Part shown: positions 37,797 to 62,123 of the stretch, piece by piece | Layout: each line of letters begins with the position of its first letter | How positions within the stretch are numbered: position 1 is the stretch's first letter | DNA from: Nitrosopumilus sp. | GTDB lineage: Archaea > Thermoproteota > Nitrososphaeria > Nitrososphaerales > Nitrosopumilaceae | Reading direction: 5' to 3' | Length of the DNA stretch: 64,000 nt | Assembly: GCA_965204345.1 (NCBI GenBank) | Contig: OZ241981.1 | Coordinates: 448,001-512,000, forward strand | Position numbers and translations under genes: made by a program | Notes under the pieces: model-generated | What the model was told of the DNA's origin: nothing | The model's input: the letters and a program-made list of their open reading frames with translations, nothing else | Database searches by the model: none

Positions 37797-37903
37797 GCAA
37801 CAAATGCCAACTTGCTAGAAAAATTATCAAACTCAGATTGCCTTGAGCGTTTACACCAGTTGCCTTTGCACCAAATGCTAATTTACTAGAAAAATTATCA
37901 GAC
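37797..37903. repeat. 36-bp direct repeat (31/36 identical) flanking a 35-bp unique insert
   Basis: gcaacaaatgccaacttgctagaaaaattatcaaac (37797-37832) and gcaccaaatgctaatttactagaaaaattatcagac (37868-37903). Confidence 0.8.
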
Positions 37904-38266: not shown

Positions 38267-38373
38267 GCTTGATTGCAAGTGAAACTGTTATCTGATTTTG
38301 AGTTGAGGACCAGCCATATTTTGAGGCACTAGTCAGAGCTTGATTGCAAGTGAAACTGTCATCTGATTTTGAG
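38267..38373. repeat. 36-bp direct repeat (35/36) flanking a 35-bp unique insert
   Basis: gcttgattgcaagtgaaactgt(t/c)atctgattttgag at 38267-38302 and 38338-38373. Confidence 0.95.
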
Positions 38374-38376: not shown

Positions 38377-38486
38377 TCTTGTGTCAATAAAGGCGCCGAG
38401 AGAGGGATTCGAACTATTGTTTCTAATCTGAACTTTAGGTTATTATGATCTTGTGTCAATAAAGGCGCCGAGAGAGGGATTCGAAC
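38377..38486. repeat. 36-38-bp perfect direct repeat of the tRNA-Ser 3' end flanking a 34-36-bp insert
   Basis: tcttgtgtcaataaaggcgccgagagagggattcgaac at 38377-38414 and 38449-38486. Confidence 0.95.
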
Positions 38487-38547: not shown

Positions 38548-38596
38548 ACCTATTATGGGATTGTCTCCATAATAAAACGAATAGATGAGTTTAGGC

Positions 38597-38902
38597 CTAA
38601 TCAATGTCAAATAATTCGTCTCTGAATTTCTTTTTGATTTGATCCCGTGTTCTAACCCACTCTTCGTCAGTTACAGTGTCTGTAAAAATGGAATGAAACC
38701 CGTCAAATTTCGGATTATTCAGTATTGCAATGATTTCCCGTCTTTCAAATTGTGTAAAAGGAAAATAAGAGACAATGGCTGAAACAGAATCATCGGATTG
38801 ACGGATTTCAAATATTTTATCTTGTAAATTGGGCGGAAATCTTTGTTGGGACACTTGATTTTGAATTTGCTTGCATAGTAAATATGATTTTAAAGACAGC
38901 AA
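38597..38902 (-). CDS. Conserved hypothetical protein
   Basis: 101-aa ORF divergent from fen; start codon uncertain. Confidence 0.6.
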   Translation of the reverse strand: MLSLKSYLLCKQIQNQVSQQRFPPNLQDKIFEIRQSDDSVSAIVSYFPFTQFERREIIAILNNPKFDGFHSIFTDTVTDEEWVRTRDQIKKKFRDELFDID

Positions 38903-38963
38903 ATAAGATACCGATCAGTTCCAAAGGATAAACACAAAATAGATGAAAAATCCATGGGATCTC

Positions 38964-39983: not shown

Positions 39984-40188
39984 ATTACAAATTCATCCCA
40001 TCATACTTTAAAAAAAACAAAAGAGGTCATAGAGCTATCCATTGCACGATATGCATCAAAAAAATCCTTCAGAATTTGTGCCCAAATTATGTTTGATAAT
40101 CTTACAGCAGCTATTGTAATAGCACTTGCAGCAATGCATGTTGAATTTTTTGTACTAATAATAAAACTCGGGGATTATCAAAATAAAG

Positions 40189-40404
40189 TCATGGGGCATA
40201 AGTCCCTGTTTTGAGAATTGCCAATCTGATTTTCTTGTTCCAATCAAGAATCTGATTGGAATAGTCATCAATATCATCATTCTGTATTGTTTGTTTAGAC
40301 CTCATCCTCATCTCAAAGAATACTTTGGCAAAGATTACACATGACATGATTAAAAATATCTTAAAAAACCAACTAGTTTCATCTGGTTTCAAGCGTATAA
40401 GCAT
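40189..40404 (-). CDS. Small hypothetical protein
   Basis: ORF only; start uncertain. Confidence 0.35.
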   Translation of the reverse strand: MLIRLKPDETSWFFKIFLIMSCVIFAKVFFEMRMRSKQTIQNDDIDDYSNQILDWNKKIRLAILKTGTYAP

Positions 40405-40433
40405 TTTTATATTTAAAATTTGGAAATTAAATA

Positions 40434-41105
40434 ATGGAATATGAGATTGTGAAAAATCCCATGGGACTAATTGAATTTACACTAAACAGGGATGAAAAAA
40501 TTACAGCAGAGGCCGCTGCCATGGTTTTCATTAAGGGTAACATTAGAACTGAAACTAGAATGAGAAAGGGCGGATTTTTAAAATCACTCAAGGCCGCGGC
40601 GTTTGGGGGGGAATCATTTTTTGTAAACGAGTTCACAGCAGATGAGAATGATTGTAAGCTCGGACTGACAGGAAATATGCTAGGAGATATTGAGGTACTA
40701 GATGTTAATGAGGAGTTTATAGTTCAATCAGGTGCATTTGTAGGCTCTACTACAGATTTAACACTAGATACCAAATGGCAGGGATTCACCAAAGGGATCT
40801 TCGGCAGCAACCTATTCATGCTAAAAACAGTCGGAACCGGAAAAATGTTTGTTAATGCATGGGGAGGAATTGTTAAGAAAAAGCTAGAATCAGGAGAAAG
40901 GATGATTCTTGACAACTATCAACTAGTTGCACTAAGTTCCACGGCAGATTACAGAGTAACAAAGCATGGCAGCCTTAAAACAACACTGTTTGGGGGAGAA
41001 GCCCTAGTCATAGAGATAATTGGCCCGGGAACAGTATACATACAGACAAAGAACATTATGGAATTTGCCAGGGCACTAATTCCATTTCTCCCAAGACGGA
41101 ATTAA
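40434..41105 (+). CDS. AIM24 / TIGR00266 family protein
   Basis: ITAEAAAMV, FGGESFFVN, FGGEALV and GPGTVYIQT motifs. Confidence 0.9.
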   Translation: MEYEIVKNPMGLIEFTLNRDEKITAEAAAMVFIKGNIRTETRMRKGGFLKSLKAAAFGGESFFVNEFTADENDCKLGLTGNMLGDIEVLDVNEEFIVQSGAFVGSTTDLTLDTKWQGFTKGIFGSNLFMLKTVGTGKMFVNAWGGIVKKKLESGERMILDNYQLVALSSTADYRVTKHGSLKTTLFGGEALVIEIIGPGTVYIQTKNIMEFARALIPFLPRRN

Positions 41106-41421
41106 TAAAATCAAAAATAAGGAAATTGTTAAAGCATCAGCAATGCCATCCTAGAAAAATATTTGTCATGAGAGCATGTTTTCATAGGAAATTACATCTT
41201 GAGATTGAATTTAAAAAAAAATATACATAATGCAATTTGTTAAATACGGGAAACCCTCGTAAAAAAACAAAAGGAATAAAGATGAACAAAGATGATTACT
41301 TAAATCCAGCAGGCCAGAATTGTAACAGACACTTTTTAAAAACAAGAAATGAGAGAGGGGACATTCCTTTACAACCCTAAAGGTAATCTATATTGCATTA
41401 AGAATTTTTCCAATACTTTTT

Positions 41422-42921
41422 GTGCTAAAAAAACACAGAAAAATCTGGATTCACAAGCAAGATGAAAGCGTGGATCTAGAAAAATTTACAAAAAATGGCA
41501 GAAAGTTGCTAAACACGTTTCTGTCACTGGGACCAGTATACATAAAATTGGGACAGTGGCTTTCCTCCAGAGCAGACATACTTCCACAGCCATACATGAA
41601 AGAGCTGGAAAAATTACAGGACAACATTCCTGCTGCGCCATTTGAAAAAGTCAAACCCATCTTAGAAAGGGATTTGGGATCAGTTGAGGGGAAATTTGAT
41701 TTCTTTGATCATGATGCGCTGGCTGGCGCGTCACTGGGACAGGTGTATCGCGCCAAGATAAACAACAAGGAAGTGGTTGTTAAGGTAAAGCGTCCTGGAA
41801 TAGAAGAAAAAATAAAAGAAGACATAAAGGTTTTAGAGAAATTTTTGCCAATAGGCCTGAGATTTATTGATCCAAACCTGGGTTTTTCTGCAAAGTCAGT
41901 CATAGCACAGTTCATTGAATCAATTCATGAGGAGATAGACTATACTTTGGAGCTAGCTAACTTGAAAAAAATCAAGTGGAATTTAAGGGATAACGACAGG
42001 GTGATAATTCCCTCAGTTTATGAGGAATATTCTTCAAAAAACGTCATCACAATGGAGTATCTTCCGGGAATAAAAATCACGGACATTAAAGCCCTAGATG
42101 AGAAAAAATTTGACCGAAAAAAGCTGGTGCTAGAAATTTTTAATATCTTTTTTACAATGCTGCTTCGGGATCCCATATTTCATGCAGATCCCCATCCAGG
42201 CAATATTTCAGTGAGCAGGGAGGGCAAAATAATCCTATACGATTATGGAATGATTGGAAGATTGGACAAGGAGACTAGAATGCGTCTAATTAGGGTATAT
42301 CTAGGATTGATAGAAAAGGATCCGTCAAGGACAGTCAACGGCATGGAAGAACTCGGAATGTTAAAGCCCGGATTCAACAGGATTTTGATTGAAAAGGCCA
42401 TATCAATGTCAATACGAAGCATACATGGACAAAAGCCAGACGAGGTGGAAGTAAAATCATTTATGGAATTGGCAAACAAGACCATGGGGAGATTTCCATT
42501 TTTGCTGCCAAAGGAGCTGGCATCCTACCTAAGAATGGCCTCAATACTAGAAGGAATTTATGAAACACACAATATTGAGTTCAGGTTTGCCAAAGTCCTA
42601 AGAGCAATTTTAGAAAAAGAGAATCTGGTATTCAGGGCATATGTGCAAGAATTAAAACATTCATTTAACAGGATAACAGAGTCAGTTGATACTGCAATAT
42701 CGCTTGCACCGGAGCTAAAGAGGTTTTTGGATGACAGGCATTCCCTTGAGGAAACAACAAAAAAACGAAACCAGAATCTCCTGCTTTCAGGAAGCATTTT
42801 GTCCTCTGCTGTCTTTGTTGGCTCTGCAGTTTTGTTTTCTGCAAATGAGCTTGCAGGCACAATAGGGATGATAAGCTCAGGTGTAATAATGGGCATTTTT
42901 ATAAAGTTTACAAGAAATTAA
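41422..42921 (+). CDS. AarF/ABC1/UbiB family atypical kinase
   Basis: LGPVYIKLGQWLSSRADILP, ASLGQVY, VKVKRP, FHADPHPGN, DYGM motifs and C-terminal TM segments; true start uncertain. Confidence 0.92.
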   Translation: MLKKHRKIWIHKQDESVDLEKFTKNGRKLLNTFLSLGPVYIKLGQWLSSRADILPQPYMKELEKLQDNIPAAPFEKVKPILERDLGSVEGKFDFFDHDALAGASLGQVYRAKINNKEVVVKVKRPGIEEKIKEDIKVLEKFLPIGLRFIDPNLGFSAKSVIAQFIESIHEEIDYTLELANLKKIKWNLRDNDRVIIPSVYEEYSSKNVITMEYLPGIKITDIKALDEKKFDRKKLVLEIFNIFFTMLLRDPIFHADPHPGNISVSREGKIILYDYGMIGRLDKETRMRLIRVYLGLIEKDPSRTVNGMEELGMLKPGFNRILIEKAISMSIRSIHGQKPDEVEVKSFMELANKTMGRFPFLLPKELASYLRMASILEGIYETHNIEFRFAKVLRAILEKENLVFRAYVQELKHSFNRITESVDTAISLAPELKRFLDDRHSLEETTKKRNQNLLLSGSILSSAVFVGSAVLFSANELAGTIGMISSGVIMGIFIKFTRN

Positions 42922-43310
42922 TTGAGCAGGTTTTCAAATACGTGCAGCAGCAAAGTTGATTTTTTTTAGTCATGTTTACTGGCAAAACATTGCCCCAAGT
43001 ACGCCTCTAGTTTTTCTGGCCTTGATATTTTCAGCATCAAAACCGGCCAGACCGGATTTGACTTTGGGATTATCACCTGCCAATAAGCATCAAAGGCACA
43101 GGGATTCATTTGGTGACGTGTGCGACTTGTCATGCCTCTGAGGACATATCCCTTGCAAATTGCTCCAGGACTTTTATTTAACATGCAATGACAATACAGA
43201 CGGCATCTTCTTAAAGATGCTTTACTCTAATTTAAGATCAAAAGATGTGAAATGTCAAAACAGCCAGAGGCTTTAAAATACTTTAAGTATAATTAAAAAG
43301 AATCCCGTTT

Positions 43311-43607
43311 ATGGTTCATTTTTTAGCATGGTTTCTGGCAGGACTTGCAGCCCCTAAAGTGTATGAAAGACTAGCGCCGGAGGTAAAGGCTCAATGGAAG
43401 AAAAAGTATCCAATACATCACGGCGAGGCGGGAATTCTGATGGTGTTGGGGGGATCTGTTACAAAAAATCTGGGATTGGCAGCTTTTGGAGCAGGCCTGA
43501 TCATAGAAGATTGGAAGGATAGAAACGAATGGTTCAAAAAAACAGATTCAGAACAAGGCATTGAGGAATCTGCTTTTGATGATGATGATGATGATGATGA
43601 CAGTTAA
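43311..43607 (+). CDS. Small membrane protein with poly-Asp tail
   Basis: IHHGEAG..GLIIEDW motif; GAT run at 43578-43601. Confidence 0.65.
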   Translation: MVHFLAWFLAGLAAPKVYERLAPEVKAQWKKKYPIHHGEAGILMVLGGSVTKNLGLAAFGAGLIIEDWKDRNEWFKKTDSEQGIEESAFDDDDDDDDS

Positions 43608-44150
43608 CTGCACAGCAAACCAAAAAGATCTCAAGAGAATTTAAAATGAAGAGAAGAAAAACAAATGTACAGCATGGCATTTTTTGACGAGTCCTGTACC
43701 GACTAATTGCGTATTTTGCAGGTATGTCTTTTAGCGTATGCATTATGGGACCCACATTACCAATAAAAGAAACGGTTAGACCAGATTGGTTTATTGCAGT
43801 TCCAACCATGACTGTAACATGGTTTTAGGAACAGGTCTTGTGATAAAATGAGATGCTCGTAGTTAAAGGGATAAAGACCAGACATTAGGATTTGCCAAAA
43901 GGAGTATTACATTACAGGTAAAGGCACCTGCTGATTTGTGTTTGGTACGTCTCTCAGAAAAAGGACTGACAGCAACAGTCTGGTATCAGGCTTGGCAGTC
44001 ACCATGTAGGCGTATCTGGGATATTTTTGGGATGAAAAAACAAAGAGAAATCAAAGTCAGAAGAAAAACCAGGCGGCCAGGTAATTTTTGAGACAGCCTA
44101 GTTATTTTAAAAGGATTATAACTTAATAACCAGACACCATATTCTAAAAA

Positions 44151-44681
44151 ATGCATCAGACAGAAGCAAGAAAGATACTCAAGGATGCCCCAATCATGTG
44201 GAGAAGAATCAACTCAATAGGCATGATTTTAGACTGTAATTCAACATACGCTGCAAAGCTAGGGTACATCAAGTCAGAGATACTTGGAAGGCCAATCTTT
44301 GAGCACGTACCAAAGGAGGCATGGAAGGACATGAATAACTCTCTAAAAAGATGGTTTGAGACAGGCAAGGTAACAGATAGAAAAATTACGTTCAAAAAGC
44401 AGACAGGTGAGACATTTCTAGGGCTTTTGCAGGCAACTAGCCTGTACGATGAGAACAGAAATCTGCTTGGAAGCAACACGGTAATTTTTGACTTGGAGCA
44501 GATGACAGGTGAAAAGATTAAGGAATGCCAGGAATTTTTTAAAAAATCAAACGAAAGATTGGATGAGATTAAAGAAAAAGACTATGATCAGCTAGATGCA
44601 AATTCAAAGCTAGAATATGATGGACTAGAAGAGATGTTTGAAATGCTATCTGCCATCAACCTGGAGCAATTAAAAAAATAA
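44151..44681 (+). CDS. Stand-alone PAS domain protein
   Basis: GMILDCN..YAAKLGY..SEILGRPI and LYDENRNLLG patterns. Confidence 0.8.
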   Translation: MHQTEARKILKDAPIMWRRINSIGMILDCNSTYAAKLGYIKSEILGRPIFEHVPKEAWKDMNNSLKRWFETGKVTDRKITFKKQTGETFLGLLQATSLYDENRNLLGSNTVIFDLEQMTGEKIKECQEFFKKSNERLDEIKEKDYDQLDANSKLEYDGLEEMFEMLSAINLEQLKK

Positions 44682-46604
44682 TTATTCTGGATTTTCCTTG
44701 ATTGATTTTTGAAGTTCATCAAAGACTTGTTTGACCTCAGTTACAGCAGAACCGTCTTCTAGCGTACTGACATCACCGATTTGCTCACCATTGCCAATTG
44801 CTTTGAGCAGCCTGCGCATGATCTTGCCACTGCGGGTTTTGGGTAACTTGGAAACAAAACAGATTTGCTTGGGAGCTGCAATTGCACCTATGTCGATTCT
44901 GATTTTTTCAACAAGTTGTTTTTCTAAAATCACAGAATCAGCTGCAACTCCTTGTTTTAAGACCACAAATGCAATTATTGCCTCGCCCTTTACATCATCG
45001 GGGACCCCACATGCGGCAGATTCTGCAACATCAGGATGGGATACAATGCAACTTTCAAGTTCGGCAGTCCCAATTCTGTGACCGGCAACCTTTAGAACGT
45101 CATCTGCACGGCCTAGCATCCACAGATAGCCATCATCATCCTTTAAGGCATAGTCGCCCGGATAGTAGCAGTTTTGATATTTTGACCAGTAAACAGTCCT
45201 GTATTTTTGATCATCACCCCACAGTGTCAAAAGCATTCCGGGCCAGGGATTTCTGATTACCAGGTATCCCTTAGTGTTGGCACCGGCCTCATTTCCATTC
45301 TCATCGACAACGTCAATTTTTACACCTGGAATGGGGCGTGTCCCAGAACCGGGCTTTAGAGGAATTGTCTCAATGCCAGGCAGGGACGAAACTAAAATCC
45401 CGCCAGTTTCAGTCTGCCACCAGGTATCAATAACGGGACACTTTTCCTTTCCTATGGTTTTGAAATACCATTTCCATACTTTGGGATTTATCGGTTCCCC
45501 GACTGTCCCAAGCAGTCGTAGGGATGAAAGATCAAAGGAGTTTGGAGCATCATCGCCAAACTTCATAAACATTCTCAGTGCGGTAGGCGTGGTGTAAAAA
45601 ATTGTAACTTTGTATTTTTGTAAAATGTCCCACATCCGTGACGCATCAGGAAAGTCAGGGGCTCCCTCATACATCACTTGGGTTGCACCATGAAGTAACG
45701 GGGCATAAACGACATAGCTGTGGCCTGTAACCCAGCCAATATCAGCAGTGCAAAAAAAGATGTCAGTATCTCTAATATCAAATGCCCACCTGAATGTAGA
45801 ATGCAGATGTGTAAGGTATCCTCCGGTGCCATGCAAGACACCCTTTGGTTTTCCGGTGGTGCCCGAAGTATACAAAATGTAAAGGGGATGATCACTGGGC
45901 AGTTTTTCAGCAGCACACGAATCAAAAGCTTTCTCCATTAGTTTGCTCCAAAGTTTGTCTTTAGGGGAGGTGGAGAATTTTTGCTTTGTTCTCTCCAAGA
46001 CAACCACATGTTCTACAAAATCAAGGTCTGCAATTGCAGTATCCACAACATCCTTGAGCGGAATAATTTTCCCCCTCCTGTATCCGCCATCGGCAGTTAC
46101 AATTACTTTGGATTTTGAGTCCGATACCCTGTCTTTGATTGATGAGGCGCTAAATCCGGAGAAGATTACAGTGTGTATTGCGCCAATTCTGGCACATGCA
46201 AGCATTGCAATGGGCAGTTCGGGAACCATTGGGAGATAGATTGTAACCCTGTCTCCCTTTTGGACACCAAGTGATTTGAGGACATTGGAGAACTTTTGGA
46301 CCTCAGTGAACATCTGGCCATATGACACATTGCGGCATTCGCCGTTTTCTCCCTCCCACAGTATTGCAGGCCTGGAGGATTTTGATTGCTGATGAATGTC
46401 CAGTGCATTATGCGAGGCATTAATTGTGCCTCCAACAAACCATCTGGCAAAGGGGGGATTCCAATCAAGGGTCTTCTCCCAGGGGGAAAACCAGGACAGA
46501 TTCTTTGCCTGCCCATCCCAAAAGGATACAAAATCAGAATCGGCCTTTCTTCTTATGCTCTCATCGTGATTTCCAAGGCCGATTTTGTAGATTTCAGACA
46601 TCAA
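44682..46604 (-). CDS. acs: Acetyl-CoA synthetase (AMP-forming)
   Basis: YTSGTTGKPKG, DTWWQTETG, GRADDV and PKTRSGKIMRR motifs. Confidence 0.96.
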   Translation of the reverse strand: MMSEIYKIGLGNHDESIRRKADSDFVSFWDGQAKNLSWFSPWEKTLDWNPPFARWFVGGTINASHNALDIHQQSKSSRPAILWEGENGECRNVSYGQMFTEVQKFSNVLKSLGVQKGDRVTIYLPMVPELPIAMLACARIGAIHTVIFSGFSASSIKDRVSDSKSKVIVTADGGYRRGKIIPLKDVVDTAIADLDFVEHVVVLERTKQKFSTSPKDKLWSKLMEKAFDSCAAEKLPSDHPLYILYTSGTTGKPKGVLHGTGGYLTHLHSTFRWAFDIRDTDIFFCTADIGWVTGHSYVVYAPLLHGATQVMYEGAPDFPDASRMWDILQKYKVTIFYTTPTALRMFMKFGDDAPNSFDLSSLRLLGTVGEPINPKVWKWYFKTIGKEKCPVIDTWWQTETGGILVSSLPGIETIPLKPGSGTRPIPGVKIDVVDENGNEAGANTKGYLVIRNPWPGMLLTLWGDDQKYRTVYWSKYQNCYYPGDYALKDDDGYLWMLGRADDVLKVAGHRIGTAELESCIVSHPDVAESAACGVPDDVKGEAIIAFVVLKQGVAADSVILEKQLVEKIRIDIGAIAAPKQICFVSKLPKTRSGKIMRRLLKAIGNGEQIGDVSTLEDGSAVTEVKQVFDELQKSIKENPE

Positions 46605-46659
46605 AAAAGTTTATGAGGATAGATCCTTCTAAGTGTTTAAAAAAAATAATTTAAAAAAA

Positions 46660-47538
46660 TTATTGTGCTTCCATTCTAGCAAGCCAGTCATTATCATTAT
46701 CATCTTTTGAGGTCTCTGCTGTCACCTGTTGGGGTGGTTCTGGAAATGCAAATGTTACCTCAGATTCAGTTGGAGGCTCTGGTATTGGGGTACTTGGCGC
46801 CTCTATTGGCCCTGAAGGTATTGCTGCTGATTGGACTGGAACTTCTGGAAGTATTGTCTGAACTGCCTGTTGCGGTTCAGAAGTCTCCAGGTATGTAACG
46901 GCTGATTCTTGGATGTCCGGTGTTGGGGGGGCTGTTATCTCTTGCACTTCTAGTTCAAGATCTGCAATTCTGGTCTTTACATTTGCAATTTCTGCTGTTT
47001 CGTGAGTTATATGCTCAATTACCTCAGTTGTGCATGACTTTACAGTCTCAAATGTTGGATCAGAGATTTCGTTGCTTTTGAACTGTACTTTTGCATCAAA
47101 CGATAGCATCTTTGCAGACTTCATCTGATCATCTAACTCAGCCAGTCTTGCCTCAAGCACAGCCTTGATTTGGCTTTCTGTCTCATCTAATAATACAAGC
47201 TTTGACTTGTATTTTTCATGAATGATTTGTGCATCTGCCTTCATGTCATCATTTTCTGAAACAATATCAATCAGTGCCTTTAGACGGCGTAGAGTTAGCT
47301 GTTTTTCACGAATGAGCCTTTGGGAGTCGAGTCTCCATTTTGGAATGAATATAACAACTTCGCCTTGAACCACCAGTTGCTCATATTGGATTTGCTGTAA
47401 TCCCTGAGAACCGCAGTCAATGCCGACAGACTGTATGCTGCCATCGATGTCAGTCATTGTTCCTACAACCTTACCCATGAATGTTCCGTACATGTCCTTG
47501 ACGTTTTTACCGATTATTTCGATATCGTCTTGGGTCAT
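46660..47538 (-). CDS. cdvA: CdvA-like cell division protein
   Basis: IGKNVKDMYG PRC-like N-terminus, coiled coil and Pro-rich tail; ATG 47538 preferred. Confidence 0.82.
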   Translation of the reverse strand: MTQDDIEIIGKNVKDMYGTFMGKVVGTMTDIDGSIQSVGIDCGSQGLQQIQYEQLVVQGEVVIFIPKWRLDSQRLIREKQLTLRRLKALIDIVSENDDMKADAQIIHEKYKSKLVLLDETESQIKAVLEARLAELDDQMKSAKMLSFDAKVQFKSNEISDPTFETVKSCTTEVIEHITHETAEIANVKTRIADLELEVQEITAPPTPDIQESAVTYLETSEPQQAVQTILPEVPVQSAAIPSGPIEAPSTPIPEPPTESEVTFAFPEPPQQVTAETSKDDNDNDWLARMEAQ

Positions 47539-47671
47539 GTGAGTTAGTTTAGAGATTTGTATAACCAACAAAGTGTAAGAAATGTTTTTAGTTTTAGTAA
47601 GATAAAATTCACAAACTCAAGACAGGTCAATTTTCAGTAATTTTAAAATCTAGAGACAAAATAACAGGCTC

Positions 47672-47965
47672 ATGATTCAAAAAGAGGAACTAGAGCAAAT
47701 TTTGAATTTTGTCGCAAGCAGGTGGACCGGAGCCACAAAGGATCCAAACAACAGGGCAATGGATACTCTGCCAAATGACTTTTGGATGAACTCAATTGGA
47801 GGAAAGACTGCCAAAAAGGGATTCTGGGTTACAACCCTAATGTATACAGAAAATGAAGAGGATGCCGAATCCTTCAAGCAGGTACTGCTAAGATGGCAGG
47901 CAAAAGGCCAAGACAAAGACAGAGACAAAGGTCCCGATCTAATTCAAATTGGAAAAAAGAAATAG
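47672..47965 (+). CDS. Conserved hypothetical protein
   Basis: 97-aa ORF directly upstream of thyX on the same strand. Confidence 0.65.
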   Translation: MIQKEELEQILNFVASRWTGATKDPNNRAMDTLPNDFWMNSIGGKTAKKGFWVTTLMYTENEEDAESFKQVLLRWQAKGQDKDRDKGPDLIQIGKKK

Positions 47966-47997
47966 AGTATTAATAATTGTGAGCTGACATAACGGTA

Positions 47998-49617
47998 TTG
48001 TCAGAATTCTCAATTAATGAAAAAAAAATTCTATCCAAACATTTTTCAAATACGGAAGGGAATGTCTTTGCAATAACTACTCCGCGACAAGTTGATCGCG
48101 GTGCGTTAATGTCAAGATACAGCAGAACAGATAAGAGCATGAGAAGAGTCTTCCTAGATGAATTCTTAAAAAACAGAAACAGGGGGGAGGAATTTTACAA
48201 CAGGGTGCTTTTAGAATACGGGGATGATTCTGTTGCAGAGTTGGGTGAAGCCCAGATTGCAATAGAGGGACTCTCAAACATTGCAGTCAAAAAAATTGAA
48301 GACAGGCGAATTGGCCTGTCATACTTGGAAAAATCATCAAGGTATGTAGTATGGAACAAGAAGGAAAAAGGGAAATACAGGTTTTACAGGGAACCCAAAA
48401 TTATGGAATCGCGGTTTGCAGACATTTATGAGGAGAGCTGTAACTTTTCATTTGATGTTTATTCAGAAAACATAGAGCCGATGATAAGATATGTTAGGGA
48501 AAAATATCCAATAGAAAAATATAGTTTTAAGAATTCCAGGGACGGAGAGGAAAAATTATTCTCTAAGCTAAGAGACGAGTCAGACATAAAGTCAGCAGAG
48601 ATGATTTACAAGGGCTCAACAAAGGCAAAGGCACTTGACATACTGAGGGGATTATTACCTGCATCAACTTTAACAAATGTTGGCATTACAGGAAACGGAC
48701 GCGCATTTGAATATCTTTTAACAGTTTTAGGCTCGTCTGAGCTAAAAGAAGAGCAGGATTTAGCCTCAAAAATCAAAAAAGAGCTTGACACGACGATCAA
48801 GTCATTTGTCAGAAGGGCAGATGACAGGTATGGCAAAGCATTTCAAAAATATCTCAAAGACATCAGAAATAAATCCAAGGCAATTGCTGCAAAAGAAATA
48901 AGACCGGACCCAAGAGAGGGGACGATTACAAAACTTGTAAGGTACGAATCAGAAAGAGATGCAATAGATACGATCATCACAGGTATAATGTATGAGCAGT
49001 CACCGGGTACGTCATATCAGAATATTTTCAGGCAGGTAAAAGGATTGCCTAGGGAGAGAAAGACTAAGATCATAGATGAATTTGCAAGGATTCGCACAAA
49101 CAGGCGCCACAGGCCGCCAAGGGCATTTGAAAACGTGTATTACACCTTTGACTTGTCCAATAATTTTGGAATGTTCAGGGACTTTCACAGGCACAGGGCA
49201 CTGACACTAGAAAGACAGATGCTTACAACGGATCACGGGTATGGCATGCCAGATGAAATAAAGATTTTGGGCATTCAGAGGGATTTCAAGGATTGCATGA
49301 ACAAAACAAAAGAGGCGTTTGAAAAAATTAGAACCAGATTTCCAGAGCAGGGGCAGTACGTAGTAAACTTTGGATACAACTATCCGTACTTTATGAAGTT
49401 TAATCTAAGGGAGGCCTGCCATCTAATTGAGCTGAGAACGGTTCCGCAGGGACATGCAGATTACAGAAGGGTTGCACAGCAAATGTTCAGACAAATTAAC
49501 AGGGTTCATCCAAATCTTAGTAAAATTATAAAGTATGCAGATATGAAGGAATATGATTTGGAAAGATTTGAATCAGAGAAAAGAACAGAAGAAAAGAGAA
49601 AAGATTTGAAAAAATAA
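47998..49617 (+). CDS. thyX: FAD-dependent thymidylate synthase (long duplicated-domain form)
   Basis: [27 protein letters not shown] and ELRTVPQGH motifs. Confidence 0.88.
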
Positions 49618-49620
49618 AGA

Positions 49621-50040
49621 GTGAATCAAATGAAAGAAAGAATAGAAAAGACACAGGAGGAATGGAAGGAGCAGTTAACCCCGGATCAGTATGAAATATG
49701 TATCAATCACGGAACAGAGCCGCCATTTTCAGGCAAATACAACAGCACAAAATTGGAGGGAGCATTCAGATGCACGTGCTGCGGTGAGAAGCTCTTCTCA
49801 TCAGATGCAAAGTTTGATTCAGGCTCAGGCTGGCCAAGCTTTTGGGAGCCAATCTCTGAGGAAAAAATAGAGTATGTCTCAGACACAACACATGGAATGG
49901 TTCGCACAGAGGTAAACTGCAACAGATGCGGGGCGCATTTGGGACATGTATTTGATGACGGCCCAAAGCCGACAAATCAGAGGTACTGCATCAATTCTGT
50001 CTCACTGCAGCATGAGAAGGATGACAAAAGACAAGAATAA
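49621..50040 (+). CDS. msrB: Peptide-methionine (R)-S-oxide reductase
   Basis: GTEPPF, KFDSGSGWPSF, HLGHVFDDGP and RYCINS motifs. Confidence 0.97.
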   Translation: MNQMKERIEKTQEEWKEQLTPDQYEICINHGTEPPFSGKYNSTKLEGAFRCTCCGEKLFSSDAKFDSGSGWPSFWEPISEEKIEYVSDTTHGMVRTEVNCNRCGAHLGHVFDDGPKPTNQRYCINSVSLQHEKDDKRQE

Positions 50041-50057
50041 ACTCAGAAAAGGCTCTC

Positions 50058-50345
50058 TTAACTTGCCGGGTGTTTGATTCCGGATCTTCCTGATGTTAGA
50101 TGGCCTGAATTTAGATTGTTTGAGGCATTGCCAGCCTTGATATACATGCCTTTGGATATGTGTATTATTTTTCCTGTTTTTGTCATCTTGTGGATGATGC
50201 CCCTTATCGAGTGTTTTGTAATGTCTCCTTTATCTTCAAATCCGCACTCAACTACGTATTTGTAAATTTCTTTCAGACTCTTTTTTTCATTTGATTCAAA
50301 AATATCATCTATTGCACGCCCCATCGTATTTTGTTTTTTCTTCAT
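50058..50345 (-). CDS. Small basic winged-helix-like protein
   Basis: SLKEIY...SIRGII..M...GKI.HISKGMY pattern. Confidence 0.55.
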   Translation of the reverse strand: MKKKQNTMGRAIDDIFESNEKKSLKEIYKYVVECGFEDKGDITKHSIRGIIHKMTKTGKIIHISKGMYIKAGNASNNLNSGHLTSGRSGIKHPAS

Positions 50346-51071
50346 AGCAGCAGAACCTCCTTAGGCGAAAACTTGAACTGTAGCATCTGTGCTGTCTGGC
50401 CACACCCCATTGCCTCCCTTTCTCTGAACCGTTATTTTGCCCAGTTTTAGATTGCCTCTTTTTGTAATTTTTGTCAATCCCCCATAATGATTGATTACAT
50501 TTTCTATCTTGGTTATTGCCAAATGTTTTATCCCATTGTCGTTCTTCTTGACCACAGGCATATAATCTGCTTTTGGCTCTGTATTTCCTCTTAATACATC
50601 ATGAATGATTCTAGACTTGTTTTTGCCAAAGAAATTCAGGATTTTCTTCTGTTCATCAAGTGTCAATTCCGTAAGAAAATAGCGTCTCTGATCTTTTACT
50701 TGTGGGATTGGATTCTCATCACTTGGCCTGTATCCCTCTTGTCCACAGTATTTTTTTAAAATGACAGCCACATCTTTTGGAATACTCTACATTTTTTGAT
50801 ATGTGTCTGCCTTTCGCTTGTCTATCTGGCTAAAACGGATGGTGAGCTTTTTTATGGATATCCCTATCTGATTGCCTCCATTGACTATTAGAAGAGCATC
50901 TGCCTTTCCATTCATGCCCAGTGAACGTGTAGTGCTTGCCTTGAGAGTCCTTATTTTGGAGTATCCCATTACAGAAAGCCATTTCTTTGCAGTTATACTG
51001 TTACTCCAATTCTGAAACTCATCTACAACTTGATCTTCGGTTGCAAAACCACTTTTGGCAGTTTCAGACAT
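50342..51071 (-). pseudogene. HinP1I-like type II restriction endonuclease, disrupted
   Basis: TAKSGF, WLSVMG, KAD, SIKK, FSQIDK, KDQRR and ITVQRKGG recall R.HinP1I. An in-frame TAG at 50787-50789 replaces the conserved W, and a frameshift near 50405 displaces QMLQFKFSP. Confidence 0.8.
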
Positions 51072-52002
51072 GATTCATCAGATGGGTTTGTGGTACATTA
51101 TAGTTTATGGCAATTATTTCCCTGCTTTTATCTTTCTGTGTAAAATACTGTAATGACCTGTTTAATGTGATTTTAAATACCCTATACATTGAAGACAGTC
51201 TCAGATAATCTGGCTGGTTTTGCTCTGAAATCATCACCTTGTTTGACTTTTGGATGTTTTTTACAAATTTCATAAAATCATCTAGTTCTACTACTGCATT
51301 ATAGTGGCCGTTGGCGTTGTTCATGTATGGCGGGTCAAGATACACAAAGCCGTTGCAGACATCCGCATAACTTGTAAAATCCTTGTTTGTTATTTTGAGA
51401 TGTTTTATTGTATTGCTTAGAAATCGTATTGTCTCCCTCTTTATTTGAGGACAGTTTGCGTTTTTTCTCATTGGACAGTTAAACTTGTTTTTTGAATTGA
51501 ATCTAATCTTTCCAGAAAAGGCATTTTTAGCAAGATAGAAAAACCTGCCAGCTCCCAGTGAACCGTCCTCCAGATCCAAATTCCTTACATGCAGATAATA
51601 ATCAGGGCTTGATTTTTTGTAATGTCGTTGGTACTGGTCAAAAAGATCATCGGGGTTTTTTCTTAGGGATTTTACAAAGTTTGTAATTACTGGATTATGA
51701 TCATTATACACGATATTTTTTGAACCAAACCTGTTGCAGGCATAAAATGTAAATCCACATCCGCCCCCAAAAACATCATAAATTTTTTCGCCATAATTAT
51801 CAGGAATCAACGAATCAAAGATATGTGCAAATCCTGATTTGCATCCCACATACGGAATTATCTTTAGGGGTGCTTTGTGCTGTCTTCCAACATCAAAACG
51901 TTGTGGCATCCACATGCTTTTTTCAGGCCTCTTATCAGTTTGAACGCAGTGTATTCCAACATCAAAACGTTGTGGCATCCACATACCTCCCCAATTTTGC
52001 AT
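51064..52002 (-). CDS. Dam-like (D12 class) DNA adenine methyltransferase; ancestral start probably near 51915
   Basis: PYVGCKS, DVFGGG, FSGKIRFNSKNKFNCP and VYLDPPY motifs. Confidence 0.88.
   Translation of the reverse strand: MQNWGGMWMPQRFDVGIHCVQTDKRPEKSMWMPQRFDVGRQHKAPLKIIPYVGCKSGFAHIFDSLIPDNYGEKIYDVFGGGCGFTFYACNRFGSKNIVYNDHNPVITNFVKSLRKNPDDLFDQYQRHYKKSSPDYYLHVRNLDLEDGSLGAGRFFYLAKNAFSGKIRFNSKNKFNCPMRKNANCPQIKRETIRFLSNTIKHLKITNKDFTSYADVCNGFVYLDPPYMNNANGHYNAVVELDDFMKFVKNIQKSNKVMISEQNQPDYLRLSSMYRVFKITLNRSLQYFTQKDKSREIIAINYNVPQTHLMNHV
51882..51986. repeat. 36-bp direct repeat (34/36) flanking a 33-bp unique insert, in frame at the methylase N-terminus
   Basis: gt(c/a)ttccaacatcaaaacgttgtggcatccacat(g/a)c at 51882-51917 and 51951-51986; gives MWMPQRFDVG twice. 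Confidence 0.93.
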
Positions 52003-52030
52003 CTTTTACGTCTTTAATCAAAAGATCGAA

Positions 52031-52225
52031 TCACTCTCTTACTAGTTCCAAGACAATCTGCTCTGTCTTGACATCCAGTGTCCATTTTATCCTGTGATCA
52101 GTAGTAATTTCTAACATCTCTGCAATGTCCCTGGGAATTGTACAGTGTACCGTCTGATTCTTGTTTGCAATTACAACGTTTGAGTATTTTATCAGATTTT
52201 TTACACTGTTCAAAACTCCGAACAT
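52031..52225 (-). CDS. AbrB/MazE-like small DNA-binding protein
   Basis: CTIPRDIAEMLEI....IKW.L.....IVLE pattern. Confidence 0.65.
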   Translation of the reverse strand: MFGVLNSVKNLIKYSNVVIANKNQTVHCTIPRDIAEMLEITTDHRIKWTLDVKTEQIVLELVRE

Positions 52226-52264
52226 TTGCCTCTAGTATCCAATTCGGGACATGGAATCAACATT

Positions 52265-52525
52265 CTAATCCAAAAGATGGCCTTGGGGATATTCCTTAAT
52301 CAAGTCTTGCATGACCCATACTGCCTCATTTCTGATGGACTCGTCTGGATGCACGATAAATTTTTTGCAAAATTCCAGCCTGTCCTCGCCTGAGAGTGTC
52401 TGTGCATATCTCTGATCTATTTTGGAATGTGATATGGAATCAAATTTGGATGAGGTATCTTTTATGACAGTTATCTTGTTTTGGTCAACAACCATACATC
52501 TGCCCGGTGCAAACTTTTCAGCCAT
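52265..52525 (-). CDS. Small hypothetical protein (single HEAT-like motif)
   Basis: HPDESIRNEAVWVM. Confidence 0.5.
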   Translation of the reverse strand: MAEKFAPGRCMVVDQNKITVIKDTSSKFDSISHSKIDQRYAQTLSGEDRLEFCKKFIVHPDESIRNEAVWVMQDLIKEYPQGHLLD

Positions 52526-52555
52526 GTAAAATAAACTGCCACAAATACAATTTAA

Positions 52556-52612
52556 TGGATTTGGTATATTTGGTTATCTGATAACTGGAATTTGACAATT
52601 TATTGCCAGGGT
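52556..52612 (+). mobile_element. Truncated MITE-like left end
   Basis: ggatttggtatatttggttatctgataactggaatttgacaatttattgcca matches the family consensus. Confidence 0.6.
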
Positions 52613-52648
52613 GCTGCACTATTGGCAGTTTTTAGGATGAGTTGTCAG

Positions 52649-52897
52649 TCATTTCATGTTTGCTATGTAGGCTTGTATGTCATCCCAACCACTTGAGCAT
52701 ACCTCAGTAGGATTTCTTTTCTGCACACATATTGCTTGCTCCAGAGTGTAAATTAGATCCAGACCCGAATCTTCTCCGCACAACAGTGTACCCGGATCAT
52801 AATGAGTATAACATGTAGGTATCAAAAGTATGCCAACTATTGTAAAGATTATGACTGTAATGCCAAATAAAAGAAGATGAGATGGGATCTTGATCAT
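52649..52897 (-). CDS. Small membrane-anchored Cys-containing protein
   Basis: N-terminal hydrophobic helix and four Cys. Confidence 0.55.
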   Translation of the reverse strand: MIKIPSHLLLFGITVIIFTIVGILLIPTCYTHYDPGTLLCGEDSGLDLIYTLEQAICVQKRNPTEVCSSGWDDIQAYIANMK

Positions 52898-52916
52898 CGG
52901 AGACTCAGAAGACTTG

Positions 52917-53155
52917 GGGCATGATAAAGTTTGATGAATTGATCACCGGAGTTTAACAAAGAGAAGGCATCGGTCTTATTTCAGACAACGGTGATAAAGT
53001 TTGATGAATTGATCACCGGAGTTTAACAGTAAATTGCAAGAGAGTGTTTTCTTAAAAAAAAATTACCCCGTCATCAAAGAATCCCAAAGTAAGTGCAATT
53101 AAGAGACTGCTAAATTTATGATTAATAGCATAGGACACCGAAATTTGTCAAACCT
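52917..53155 (+). mobile_element. MITE-like element whose left end carries a 36-bp duplication plus insert
   Basis: 52992-53153 aligns with the reverse complement of 54065-54212 over about 150 bp. Confidence 0.7.
52922..53028. repeat. 36-37-bp perfect direct repeat flanking a 33-34-bp unique insert (CRISPR-like single-spacer unit)
   Basis: tgataaagtttgatgaattgatcaccggagtttaac(a) at 52922 and 52992. Confidence 0.95.
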
Positions 53156-53210
53156 CCTGACATACAGGAATTGAATTATTACAGTAACGATGAACTATTC
53201 GTAGATATTA

Positions 53211-53405
53211 TTAATTATAATTTCCAAGTGTTCCTTGTCCTATATAACACACATCAATTAAAGGTGCTCGACATACACCATCTTCTTCATCAATAAAACA
53301 TTCAATACATCCAAATTCATCTACGGGAAGATCTGTTGTAGTAATAGGTATGAATATTGTGATAACAAATACTACTATGCCAATCAGTATAGCTATTTTC
53401 TTCAA
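53211..53405 (-). CDS. Small secreted or membrane Cys-containing protein
   Basis: MKK plus hydrophobic signal and four Cys; TTG start. Confidence 0.5.
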   Translation of the reverse strand: MKKIAILIGIVVFVITIFIPITTTDLPVDEFGCIECFIDEEDGVCRAPLIDVCYIGQGTLGNYN

Positions 53406-53430
53406 TAAGAAAAAAAGAGAAAAGTAATAT

Positions 53431-54057
53431 TTATTGGATTCCTAGCTCTGAAACTACGTTTTCCCAAGGACTAAATACTTTGAATAGAGCGTCTTTATTG
53501 TTAGCATCACAACCCGGAATAGTAAATGGATTATCATTTATCTCAGTGATGAAGCAGCCTTTACCCACATGTATACCAAGTAATCTTACATCTGTTCCAT
53601 CTACATCACTGTAAGTTGGTGAACCCGAATCACCTTTTGTACTTGGATAATTAGCTATTGCTTGATTTAGTAATGTATAGCCATCCATGGTACAGTTGCA
53701 TTTTGGTACTGTAATCCACCATAACCATCATTTTTTATTTCTGCAATTTTCACAACATTACCAGCTATCATGCCAGATAGTCCACCTTTTTCTACAACAT
53801 TTAGAGTTATATCTGCTAGTCCATTATGTGTAAGGATTTCATCTGCTCTAAATATTATTGATGGATTAGTTACTTTTACTAATGCAGCATCTGCAATTGG
53901 ATTTATTGAACCATATACATTTGAGTCTCTAACTACATTATCAATTTCTGTTCTAGGTGAAATGAGAGGTAGCTGTTTAACAAATATTTCTCTATTTTGT
54001 ACTATATCTGAAGTAGCATGAGATGAAATAACAATGCAGTTGTTATTGTTTTGTTGT
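53431..54057 (-). pseudogene. 5'-truncated, frameshifted trypsin-like (S1) serine protease
   Basis: ISSHA and IADAALV are in one frame, while KGDSGSP..LLGIHVG is in another (shift near 53690); no start codon. Confidence 0.75.
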
Positions 54058-54061
54058 ACTT

Positions 54062-54215
54062 GGCTTTGGTAAATTTTGGTGTTTTATGCCACAAATCACA
54101 AATATAAGTCTGAACTGCACCTTGAGATTTTTTCCTGACTGGATATCTAAGAAAATTATCTCTTGCAATTTACCGTTAAATTCCAGTAATCAGATCATCA
54201 AAATTTACCAAATCT
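54062..54215 (-). mobile_element. Best-preserved MITE-like element, about 150 bp with terminal inverted repeats
   Basis: Starts tttggtaaattttggtg and ends catcaaaatttaccaaa (16/17 inverted match); no ORF; no clear target-site duplication. Confidence 0.72.
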
Positions 54216-54254
54216 AAATTGAACAGTCCTATAAAATGTCCCGAATTTTGAAGT

Positions 54255-54302
54255 GTATCAAATTTATCTCTCGTGCCTATTCCTCATGAACGCAACAGAA
54301 CC
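54255..54302. mobile_element. MITE-like end relic ending gcaacagaacc (reverse complement GGTTCTGTTGC)
   Basis: Similar to 36610-36655 and to the reverse complement of 19421-19453. Confidence 0.55.
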
Positions 54303-54589
54303 GGTAAAACAACAACAATAATAATAATCACCACGTCAGTATTTTATTGGCTCCAGTCTCAGCATCAGGAGCTGGAGAATGTTTTACGATGCATGTTTGG
54401 GCATATTTTGGTGCAATTAGAGAAGATAGTATGGATTCAAAGAGGGGTTATTCTCAAAATTGATCAAAAACGCAGGATTTTGGACTAAGAGTATTTATGA
54501 AAGCATGTAGATGAATCAGCCTAGGATACAATCAGATTAGAGGGAGATAAAATGAGACAGAATTACAAAACAGAAAGGAATGAAATAAT

Positions 54590-55630
54590 TTGAGAATAAT
54601 ACTGTGCGGTTTTGGACTAGTGGGCCAAAGCTTGGTAAAATTATTTGAATCCAGGACAGATGACCTTTATGCAAAATATGGGTTAAAACCACGTGTTGTA
54701 GGAGTGGCAGACAGCAAGGGCAGTGCAGTTGATCAGTCAGGACTAGACTTTAACAGACTGGTAGAAACAAAGAAGAAATTTGGCACTGTAAAGAACTATT
54801 CAGACAAGCAAAACACAATGTCAGGCATAGAGATGCTCAAAAACATCCAGGCAGACGTTCTCATAGAGACTACGGCAAGCAACTACAGGGATGCAGAGCC
54901 GGGAATGACCCACATAACCACGGCTATGAGAAAGGGAATGCATGTTATTTCAGTAAATAAGGGCCCATTGGCGCTGGCATTTCCATCGCTGCTGGAACTG
55001 GCAATATACAATCAAGTCATATTAAAATTCAGTGGGACCGTAGGAGGGGGAACCCCAATTTTAGACTATGCCAAAAACAGTCTCAGCGGAGAGAAAATAA
55101 CATCATTTGCAGGAATTCTCAACGGGACTACAAACTACATTTTGACAAACATGGGAACAGGCATATCATATAGTGATGCATTAAGGGATGCCCAAGATAG
55201 GGGATACGTCGAGGCAGACGAGTCTTTGGATTTGGACGGACTGGATGCGGCAGCAAAATTGGTTATTCTTGCAAATTGGATAATGGGAATGAAGGTCACA
55301 CTGCCTGATATTGATTGTACGGGTATTAGAAAAGTCACACTAGATGACATTAAAAAAGCTGAAAAAAATAATTCCTCAGTAAAGCTAATTGCATCATGTG
55401 ATAAGAAATTGATAGTAGCGCCAAAAGAGATACCAAACGAGGATCCGCTGTGCGTGAATGGAACGCTAAATGCGATTTCGTTTACCTCAGAGCACTCAGG
55501 AACTCAGACAATTATCGGCAAGGGCGCGGGAGGTACAGAGACTGCCAGCTCAATTTTAAGGGATTTGTTGGAGATTAGGCAAGAGATAAGCAACAATTCA
55601 TTTCATTATTACTATGACACAAAAAAATAA
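54590..55630 (+). CDS. hom: Homoserine dehydrogenase
   Basis: GFGLVG, HVISVNKGP, TVGGGTP, GILNGTTNYIL, DAAAK and GKGAGG motifs. Confidence 0.96.
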   Translation: MRIILCGFGLVGQSLVKLFESRTDDLYAKYGLKPRVVGVADSKGSAVDQSGLDFNRLVETKKKFGTVKNYSDKQNTMSGIEMLKNIQADVLIETTASNYRDAEPGMTHITTAMRKGMHVISVNKGPLALAFPSLLELAIYNQVILKFSGTVGGGTPILDYAKNSLSGEKITSFAGILNGTTNYILTNMGTGISYSDALRDAQDRGYVEADESLDLDGLDAAAKLVILANWIMGMKVTLPDIDCTGIRKVTLDDIKKAEKNNSSVKLIASCDKKLIVAPKEIPNEDPLCVNGTLNAISFTSEHSGTQTIIGKGAGGTETASSILRDLLEIRQEISNNSFHYYYDTKK

Positions 55631-55651
55631 GAAACACATGCTTGGGATAGT

Positions 55652-56134
55652 GTGAGATTGAAGTCAAATCTAATTTCAAAGAGCGAGACAAGCGCGCTGC
55701 TCAAAACAGTGTCAGAGAGGTGGGGAATAAAATTGCCAAAAATGAAAAACCTCAAAGTTCATCAGATTCTAGATGATGCGCAGATAATTACAGGTGATGG
55801 AATCAAAATACTAAAAGTTGACGGTGATTATTTGCCATTTTTGTCAGAAACAAAGACACTGGAGAGGTTTCCAGCAGTCACAGTGGACATGGGGGCAGTC
55901 AAGTTCATGTGCAAGGGCGCAAATTTGATGAGGCCGGGAATCAAGGAATTTACAGAATTTCAAAAAGACAAGCTAGTGTGCATAGTAGAGGAATCCCAGC
56001 ACAAGTTTTTAGCAGTTGGAAAATCCATGGTTTCAAGCTTGGAATTGGGGAATATGGAAAAGGGGGAGGTCATTAAGAATATTCACTACATCTCAGACAA
56101 ATTCTGGGAGACAGGTAAAACAATTTACGACTAG
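55652..56134 (+). CDS. PUA-domain RNA-binding protein (MCT-1/Tma20-like)
   Basis: VTVDMGAVKFMCKGANLMRPGI and HYISD motifs. Confidence 0.88.
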   Translation: MRLKSNLISKSETSALLKTVSERWGIKLPKMKNLKVHQILDDAQIITGDGIKILKVDGDYLPFLSETKTLERFPAVTVDMGAVKFMCKGANLMRPGIKEFTEFQKDKLVCIVEESQHKFLAVGKSMVSSLELGNMEKGEVIKNIHYISDKFWETGKTIYD

Positions 56135-61753: not shown

Positions 61754-61946
61754 TCATTTAATTAATTGTTCATATTCCTATATTTTGTTTATTACAATCA
61801 GCAATTTTACGCCTAAATTCCGTCGTCACTTCAATTCCTTCCTAGTTTAGTATTTTCAATATTCAGAGTGGAATCAGTTGATTCAGATATAATATTTTGC
61901 AAATTTAGCTAAATGGTATAATATTGTCTTTTTGTTTGTGGACTTT

Positions 61947-62123
61947 GGATTTGGTAAATTTTGATGAACTGATCACCGAGATTTAACAGTAGTATTCGTG
62001 ACGCTAATTTTTGGCCGCATCACACAACAAAATAGACTCAAAGGCATAAAAAAAAAGTGCAGGCCAGGGAAGATTCTGTATTTCGTGTTTTATGATGTCA
62101 AATCATCAAAATATGACAGAACC
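61947..62123 (+). mobile_element. MITE-like element copy
   Basis: Starts ggatttggtaaattttgatgaactgatcaccgagatttaacagta and ends catcaaaatatgacagaacc. Confidence 0.65.

Follow-up and report, generated by a model that had tools for sequence, protein, structure and literature searches.

In Escherichia coli, over-production of the type I-E proteins Cas1 and Cas2 is said to lead to non-canonical spacer integration and thereby to 'neo-CRISPR' units (CRISPR, short palindromic repeats that are clustered and regularly interspaced) with duplications of ~28 bp, reportedly described by Nivala, Shipman and Church in Nat Microbiol in 2018. Here we describe a unit of similar form in the ammonia-oxidiser-like archaeon Nitrosopumilus sp., located at positions 52922-53028 of a 64,000 nt stretch of contig OZ241981.1 (448,001 to 512,000 of the forward strand, hereafter the window), in which 37 nt at the end of a miniature inverted-repeat transposable element (MITE) are duplicated around a 33 nt insert. 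Judged from the sequence of this and related genomes, the unit is most probably the footprint of an off-target spacer integration by the organism's own type I-B Cas1-Cas2 together with Cas4. Positions without a contig name are those of the window unless otherwise stated, and those preceded by G000 refer to the whole genome of the same organism.

Off-target integration by Cas1-Cas2 is well known from engineered E. coli and from in vitro work (PMC6698737, PMC7054753, bioRxiv 10.1101/148544), and the evidence from other species, two in number, is termed 'circumstantial' (bioRxiv 10.1101/148544). The E. coli units are reportedly like the Nitrosopumilus unit in having an insert of spacer length, a repeat-length duplication of non-CRISPR DNA and junction-like sites, and they require active Cas1-Cas2, a module that is also held by the Nitrosopumilus genome, with cas1 now split. 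The Nitrosopumilus case differs in being natural, archaeal and of type I-B, with duplications of ~37 bp and with 27 fixed events, none of which has grown into an array. For Cas1-Cas2 of Pyrococcus furiosus in vitro, off-target sites are spaced by the repeat length and are junction-like, with G or C preferred at the attacked base and an echo of the leader, for example C at -3 and the bases of the repeat border (PMC6698737). Both the spacing and an echo of the leader junction are found here, the latter as G-C-T|N-T-N-A-N-A-A (the bar marks the cut), whereas the P. furiosus events are half-site and full-site events in a plasmid assay with 30-bp repeats, and those of Nitrosopumilus are completed and repaired chromosomal insertions with repeats of ~37 bp.

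Casposons are kilobase-sized elements with terminal inverted repeats of their own, which make short duplications of 14-15 bp. The inserts in Nitrosopumilus are 30-41 nt long, mutually unrelated and flanked by duplications of ~37 bp, and the only Cas1 homologue lies in a cas1-cas2-cas4 module; shared with the family 1 casposons of Nitrosopumilus relatives (PMC8464041, PMC4046053) are the reaction of a Cas1-family integrase, the target duplication and the archaeal group. The canonical type I-B arrays of this genome and its relatives have the same unit length, repeat and spacer sizes and junction motif as the window unit, which differs from them in having only two repeats of an unrelated sequence, one spacer and no leader, and in being located ~1.39 Mb from the cas locus. 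It differs also from the target-site duplication of a MITE, as the 37 nt duplication is inside the element and not around it, and what it flanks is no transposon but 33 nt of a host gene. The papers on 'ectopic spacers' met in the literature search concern positions inside arrays, and the search, in the passages that it covered, turned up no account of naturally occurring chromosomal scars from archaea or from type I-B systems.

The repeat-insert-repeat unit and the interrupted MITE

The 37 nt sequence TGATAAAGTTTGATGAATTGATCACCGGAGTTTAACA is present twice, at 52922-52958 and 52992-53028, with 37/37 identical positions and a start-to-start spacing of 70 nt, confirming the perfect direct repeat of an earlier reading of the letters alone (the original prediction), which had also quoted the insert at 52959-52991 correctly. 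There are no further copies in the window at three mismatches or fewer, and none of 100 shuffles yielded two matches. The left end of the unit reads acttggggca|TGATAAAGTTTG, or in short form GGGGCA|TGATAAAG.

The repeat had been regarded as the palindromic left end of a dispersed MITE-like family, with four single-copy homologues in the window serving as empty-site controls, and all of this was borne out. An nhmmer profile made from the surrounding sequence gave 109 hits at 96 loci in the 2.12-Mb genome, 81 of the loci with E<=1e-3 (42 long and 31 palindrome-only), and the four homologues are among them, at 36379-36450, 52557-52611, 54140-54217 and 61946-61991. Alignment of 20 long copies shows a non-coding, multicopy element of ~175 nt with GGTTCTGGTAAATTTTGATGA at the left and CAAAATTTACCAGAACC at the right end, which constitute terminal inverted repeats of about 17-21 nt and thus justify the label MITE-like. 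Next to the left terminal repeat comes its inverted copy, the two forming a 39 nt palindrome, and the duplicated 37 nt are this left end of the element. A duplication with an insert was found in one of the 81 loci and a multi-spacer extension in none; the other 80 are single, showing that the MITE end was there first and received the duplication and the insert later. In the relatives no orthologous empty site was found for the locus at 52922-53028, where the region is not conserved and only the insert was matched, through its donor gene.

The insert matches the minus strand of G000:C1:964066-964098, inside a conserved gene for a 93-aa membrane protein, with 30 of 32 positions identical (94%; 3 mismatches in 33). 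It is a copy from a host gene and does not belong to any longer autonomous element. Five relatives match with 2 mismatches in 33. Among 150 other genomes of the genus the insert is matched in 103, and the match never extends beyond the insert. The best identity is 97% over 34-35 nt, in two other species, compared to 94% in the organism's own copy, so that the donor DNA may have come from a related strain.

The repeat itself is unrelated to the resident CRISPR repeat of the genome. Compared with the latter it has 14 matches in 34, which is at the chance level (null mean 14.8), and no Rfam match was obtained at E<=1 for window positions 50000-56000, so it is not a known repeat of the curated CRISPR-DR families. 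The unit lacks what characterizes a functional array: its repeat is not of the genome's CRISPR repeat family, it has neither a leader nor adjacent or usable cas genes for processing and interference, and it holds a single spacer.

The scars throughout the genome

An exact direct-repeat scan revealed more than 20 unrelated places in the genome with 35-39 nt duplicated around 33-37 nt, and of the 36 isolated perfect pairs of at least 30 nt at a distance of 20-400 nt, 23 have a distance of 65-79 nt. A tolerant scan for isolated pairs with at least 28/32 matches at 45-130 nt gave 54 pairs, of which 41 have a distance of 68-76 nt (72 nt in 17 of these) and none one of 45-61 nt. On inspection 11 of 48 pairs were removed as protein or tandem repeats, 31 were left after paralogous copies had been collapsed, and four units with an exact repeat run below 33 nt were excluded from the motif statistics, which leaves 27 well-defined independent events. 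A second small peak of perfect repeats at 145-154 nt, considered as possible double units, turned out to be a 50-residue protein-domain repeat.

The 27 events have a duplication of 33-42 nt (median 36), an insert of 30-41 nt (median 35) and a total of 66-76 nt with the mode at 72, and the two repeat copies are identical in 19 of them. Apart from the MITE end, the 26 sites are unrelated to the MITE family and include ordinary genes, the 3' end of a tRNA gene, multicopy elements and cas1. Paralogous empty sites are available for at least eight events (genome positions 162808, 167191, 499881, 1045502, 1400070/2017386, 1406775 with three copies, 1765720/1848731 and 1947301). In these paralogues the alignment of left flank plus repeat and that of repeat plus right flank overlap by exactly the length of the repeat, so the paralogue has one copy and no insert, indicating that the repeat-insert-repeat units are insertions.

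The longest word shared between any inserts is 9 nt, and five inserts are end-to-end copies of distant chromosomal DNA. None of the ectopic units in the genome has a second spacer (0/27). Inserts and duplicated targets do not differ from random DNA in hairpin propensity, and there is a weak trade-off between duplication and insert length (Spearman rho = -0.39, p = 0.04). Multiples of three prevail among the periods, and several events have added length to reading frames of 313 to 2559 aa that are still open, while one breaks a frame of 1026 aa.

End motif and the leader-repeat junction

A common motif, G-C-T|N-T-N-A-N-A-A, emerges from the 54 ends of the 27 events. G is found at -3 in 27 of the 54 ends (p = 4e-7), and C at -2, T at -1, T at +2 and A at +4, +6 and +7 are also enriched. 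When each event was left out in turn, both its better and its worse end scored above the null (p = 6e-9 and 3e-7). A matrix constructed from the scars only gives the genome's own leader-repeat junction, aagtgaggct|CTGAATAGAATT, a score of 6.27 bits, reached by a fraction of 1e-5 of 200,000 random positions. The leader-repeat junctions of the relatives read (G/A)CT|GTCAAAATGA and similar, and the same matrix ranks 7 of 9 within the top 0.4% of random positions, 8 of 9 within the top 3.1% and the ninth at 5.8%. The left end of the 52922-53028 unit, which is itself in the training set of the matrix, is in the top 0.3% of random positions. This pattern is in keeping with an integrase which recognizes a short motif at the junction and measures off ~37 bp.

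The resident CRISPR-Cas locus

The genome has a single Cas1 homologue (PF01867, E = 1.5e-68; C1:1887727-1888668), with two internal stop codons, and it is part of a cas1-cas2-cas4 module at C1:1886747-1888701 that adjoins a CRISPR array of six repeats with periods of 72, 68, 70, 72 and 72. The conserved core of the repeat is 34 nt, and the three leader-proximal repeats share 3 further nt. A tyrosine integrase, a 131-aa C-terminal fragment of Cas6b and two degenerate repeats are located near the array. Cas7 (PF01905, PF05107) and Cas5 (PF09704), the effector families included in the search, were not detected in the genome, which is rated 99.7% complete, and profiles for Cas3 (PF18019, PF22590) gave weak or generic helicase and HD matches only.

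In the relative G157 the order beside the orthologous Cas1 is cas8-like, cas7, cas5, cas3, cas6b, cas1, cas2, cas4, leader and an array of 67 repeats, with a short unscanned gap between cas1 and cas4. Nine arrays located beside orthologous Cas1 in relatives have repeats of 36-37 nt and periods of mostly 70-74 nt. By this gene order and these repeat lengths the resident system is a decayed type I-B system, of which the adaptation genes and a stub of the array remain.

One of the scars is located inside cas1 itself, as a perfect 38+34+38 unit with a period of 72 nt. In silico removal of this unit extends the frame from 154 to 337 aa, and cas1 thus appears to have been inactivated by the very reaction that its product catalyses. 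The orthologous cas1 of another relative, G162 (C1:1178380-1179223), is likewise broken up; it gives two separate matches and contains one in-frame TGA.

Relatives and independent sequence data

The whole 1.70 Mb of G157, which has an intact type I-B system, contains 19 isolated pairs, seven of which are perfect with distances of 69-73 nt, and six of these are ectopic. The seventh (C1:43914-44022 of that genome) is an orphan unit with two repeats and one spacer, built from a genuine type I-B repeat of a subtype unlike that of the main array. A further relative, G014, has one perfect 39+34+39 unit within its cas operon. In G010, a relative without Cas1, 796 kb of 1.36 Mb contain eight pairs with one at 70 nt and no peak; this genome is one partial negative control and not a survey.

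Parts of the region 52600-53400 are contained in 12 public sequencing runs from four studies, several of them labelled sponge metagenome. One run per study was placed on window positions 37000-54500 in the form of de Bruijn contigs only, which break at repeats and cannot separate filled from empty alleles. Contigs from three studies (runs X9, X1 and X4) stop and restart exactly at the two 37-mers, the pieces of X9 ending at 52951 and restarting at 52999 and those of X1 and X4 starting at 53001, as expected of a de Bruijn graph if both copies exist.

Origin of the unit

In the proposed course of events a prespacer of ~33 nt, cut from a homologue of the conserved membrane-protein gene, would have been captured, and the first attack would have been made at a junction-like site inside the left MITE end and not at the leader-proximal CRISPR repeat. 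The second strand transfer would follow ~37 bp away, at the repeat length measured by the integrase, and gap repair would then duplicate the 37 bp on both sides of the insert. The same reaction should have taken place at no fewer than 26 other sites of the genome, including the one inside cas1, which would have inactivated the gene. Cas1-Cas2 is the presumptive catalyst of the whole set, and with regard to the unit at 52922-53028 we hold this explanation with considerable confidence. The unit is probably inert now, as it has no leader and the genome has no full Cas6b and no detected Cas7 or Cas5.

Several observations weigh against this explanation. The right end of the unit ranks no higher than the top 20% of random positions. 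In their likeness to the CRISPR repeat the duplicated segments do not surpass random DNA (mean 14.9 matches of 34, compared to 14.8), and since the duplicated bodies are unlike the repeat, recognition must rest on the short end motif and the ruler. The core of the resident repeat is 34 nt, as against 35-38 nt in most duplications, a gap that may be reconciled by the 3 extra nt of the leader-proximal repeats and the 36-37 nt repeats of the relatives. No consistent triplet of a protospacer adjacent motif (PAM) was found on either side of the four self protospacers examined, in spite of the presence of Cas4. The inserts of the tRNA and cas1 events have no exact match in viral contigs, nor has that of the tRNA event in metagenome contigs, but exact matching is strict and says little. 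Finally, 3 of 33 positions of the window insert deviate from the donor gene in the organism's own genome, but both repeats are identical, implying either that the donor came from another strain or that the timing is odd.

Some of these points would suit an integrase or repair process other than Cas1-Cas2, possibly an undescribed one that copies a short piece and duplicates the target, making insertions of ~72 nt with target duplications of ~36 nt. Such a process is improbable, but it keeps some weight because Cas1-Cas2 is a presumptive catalyst and because no clear PAM is seen. The length trade-off and the several inserts that are self DNA can also be cited for it, although the former is expected from boundary ambiguity alone. 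Against it, the end motif matches real leader-repeat junctions in the organism's own genome and in 8 of 9 relatives, and duplication and insert are as long as the repeats and spacers of this CRISPR subtype. The inserts are moreover not hairpins, and scars are commoner in the two scanned carriers of Cas1 than in the single, partly scanned Cas1-less control.

The original prediction had seen in the unit a transposon end turned into repeat-spacer-repeat, with relevance to proposals that CRISPR repeats arose from the ends of mobile elements. The form is real, the duplicated segment does consist of the MITE terminal inverted repeat with its adjacent inverted copy, and the insertion was added to a pre-existing MITE end; that a proto-CRISPR repeat was made out of the terminal palindrome as such, independently of an existing CRISPR system, is nevertheless very unlikely. 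Only one of 81 MITE loci is affected, as against 26 units of the same size at sites unrelated to the family, and the proposed bearing on the origin of CRISPR repeats is not upheld either, as the targets are not unusually hairpin-prone, no unit has acquired a second spacer and the genome already holds a CRISPR adaptation module with a matching ruler length.

Equally little can be said for an insertion of two elements, in which a palindrome-only member and a full MITE would have transposed to positions 33 nt apart and the spacer-like appearance would be a coincidence. Both element types are abundant, and a palindrome-only member forms the end, in the corresponding position, of the paralogous cassettes at C1:309438-309752 and C1:1937074-1937460. 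However, the two 37-mers are identical, whereas all other copies in the window differ at more than 3 of 37 positions and the best relatives in the genome are 84-91% identical; in addition, what lies between them is, without remainder, copied from a distant gene, and the 70 nt period is inside the genome-wide peak. Least credible of all is an assembly or sequencing artefact or replication slippage, for even if short repeats are prone to mis-assembly and contigs, not raw reads, were compared, slippage gives tandem copies and not a foreign insert, the contigs of three separate studies break exactly at both 37-mers, periods divisible by three keep long reading frames open, and the same units are found in independently assembled relatives.

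Off-target integration by the resident Cas1-Cas2 is thus the explanation that we prefer. Because 26 other units of the same geometry are located at sites unrelated to the MITE family, the MITE is an incidental target and a bystander, not an ancestor of CRISPR repeats, and the geometry of the unit is accounted for by an adaptation module of matching unit length that is already in the genome.

Features of the window and the genome

The coordinates of the unit, the MITE copies and the other scars of the window, together with the scar in cas1, are collected in the table.

Table. Positions of the repeat-insert-repeat unit, the MITE family members and the further scars (window coordinates, except for cas1 and the nhmmer hit).
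Feature	Position	Strand	Remarks
Interrupted MITE copy	52913..53154	+	Element of ~172 nt plus 70-nt insertion; right terminal inverted repeat ~53136-53154; nhmmer hit 500986-501068
Copy 1 of the 37-nt duplicated target	52922..52958	+	Outer terminus of the MITE just upstream, at 52913-52921
33-nt insert ('spacer')	52959..52991	+	Copies part of the conserved 93-aa membrane-protein gene
Copy 2 of the 37-nt duplicated target	52992..53028	+	Runs on into the MITE body
Cysteine-rich membrane-type open reading frame, 82 aa	52649..52897	-	ATG 24 nt from copy 1
Palindrome-only family member	52557..52611	+	On the other side of the 82-aa open reading frame
Second MITE copy, inverted orientation	54062..54217	-	Inverted pair of 63 nt, 83% complementary
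Scar	51881..51984	+	35-nt copies with 1 mismatch, 34-nt insert, period 69; empty paralogue on contig C9
Scar	38377..38486	+	Perfect 38-nt copies, 34-nt insert, period 72
Scar	38267..38373	+	36-nt copies with 1 mismatch, 35-nt insert; 3 nt from the 38377 scar, beside tRNA-Ser(CGA)
Older scar	37797..37900	+	33-nt copies with 4 mismatches, 38-nt insert, period 71
Unit inside cas1	G000:C1:1888134-1888243		Outside the window; perfect 38+34+38, period 72

From the position of the ATG of the 82-aa frame, the unit is in the upstream region of this frame, and the insertion might conceivably influence its expression. The scar at 51881..51984 is in frame within a 312-aa open reading frame (ORF) at 51064-52002 and duplicates the peptide MWMPQRFDVG; the ORF product looks like a DNA methyltransferase, as read from the sequence. 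At 38377..38486 the 3' 23 nt of tRNA-Ser(CGA) and 15 nt beyond it are duplicated, leaving the tRNA intact. The 34-nt insert of this scar (38415-38448) is also found between unrelated flanks in a contig of run X1, a sponge metagenome, which may be a foreign donor. The insert of the neighbouring scar at 38267..38373 copies G000:C1:262049-262083, with 97% identity over 35 nt.

The two inverted MITE copies enclose ~0.9 kb with a 64-aa cysteine-rich ORF and the remnant of a trypsin-like serine protease (GDSGSP motif; 53431-54021, minus strand), which is frameshifted and split into at least two frames. At G000:C1:673400-682700 eight copies of the MITE or the palindrome, all pointing the same way, separate small genes that are co-directional, in the manner of cassette boundaries. 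A role as a promoter or terminator module of the archaeal type was considered for the MITE extension and was given up in view of the 175-nt element with terminal inverted repeats and its inconsistent orientation relative to the neighbouring genes.

Two giant ORFs, each exceeding 5000 aa, are located on the minus strand at 2-15193 and 20354-36331, the first with an internal periodicity of 1500 nt that is visible as a ladder of ORFs on the opposite strand. Clusters of 22-34 nt repeats (ATGTCACGTAAATTTAACACCT and variants) with irregular spacings of 51-111 nt are found at G000:C1:1829624-1829910, C1:252026-252162 and C6:32449-32585; they resemble neither CRISPR nor protein-coding repeats, and an integrated element may have them as iterons.

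Implications for the organism and its relatives

The novelty lies in setting and scale: a natural, archaeal type I-B case with dozens of fixed events and internal controls, a motif that transfers to other species, and a cas1 that appears to have been knocked out. The events constitute a natural data set of completed insertions with empty-site controls, and the motif derived from them predicts the leader-repeat junctions of other species. Self-derived spacers are tolerated in a genome where no Cas7 or Cas5 was detected, and the loss of the interference genes may have made both self-derived and misplaced spacers tolerable; an order in which interference was lost, self-spacers were then tolerated and cas1 was finally hit is plausible. 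With confidence that is only a little above even, we further propose that after the loss of interference the Cas1-Cas2-Cas4 of this sponge-associated, ammonia-oxidiser-like archaeon acted as a genome-wide insertional mutagen, leaving at least 27 fixed scars, at least five of them with the organism's own genes and some lengthening still-open proteins in frame, until cas1 itself was destroyed.

These data bear on the cost of adaptation for the genome, on the decay of adaptation modules, whose integrase gene can apparently be knocked out by its own reaction, and on whether new arrays start in this way, which 0 of 27 units have done here. As the scars recur in relatives, with six in G157 and one in the cas operon of G014, they form a countable genomic record of CRISPR mis-integration. 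If this is true, the target rules, the fitness cost of adaptation and the rate of failed array birth would be measurable across the whole lineage.

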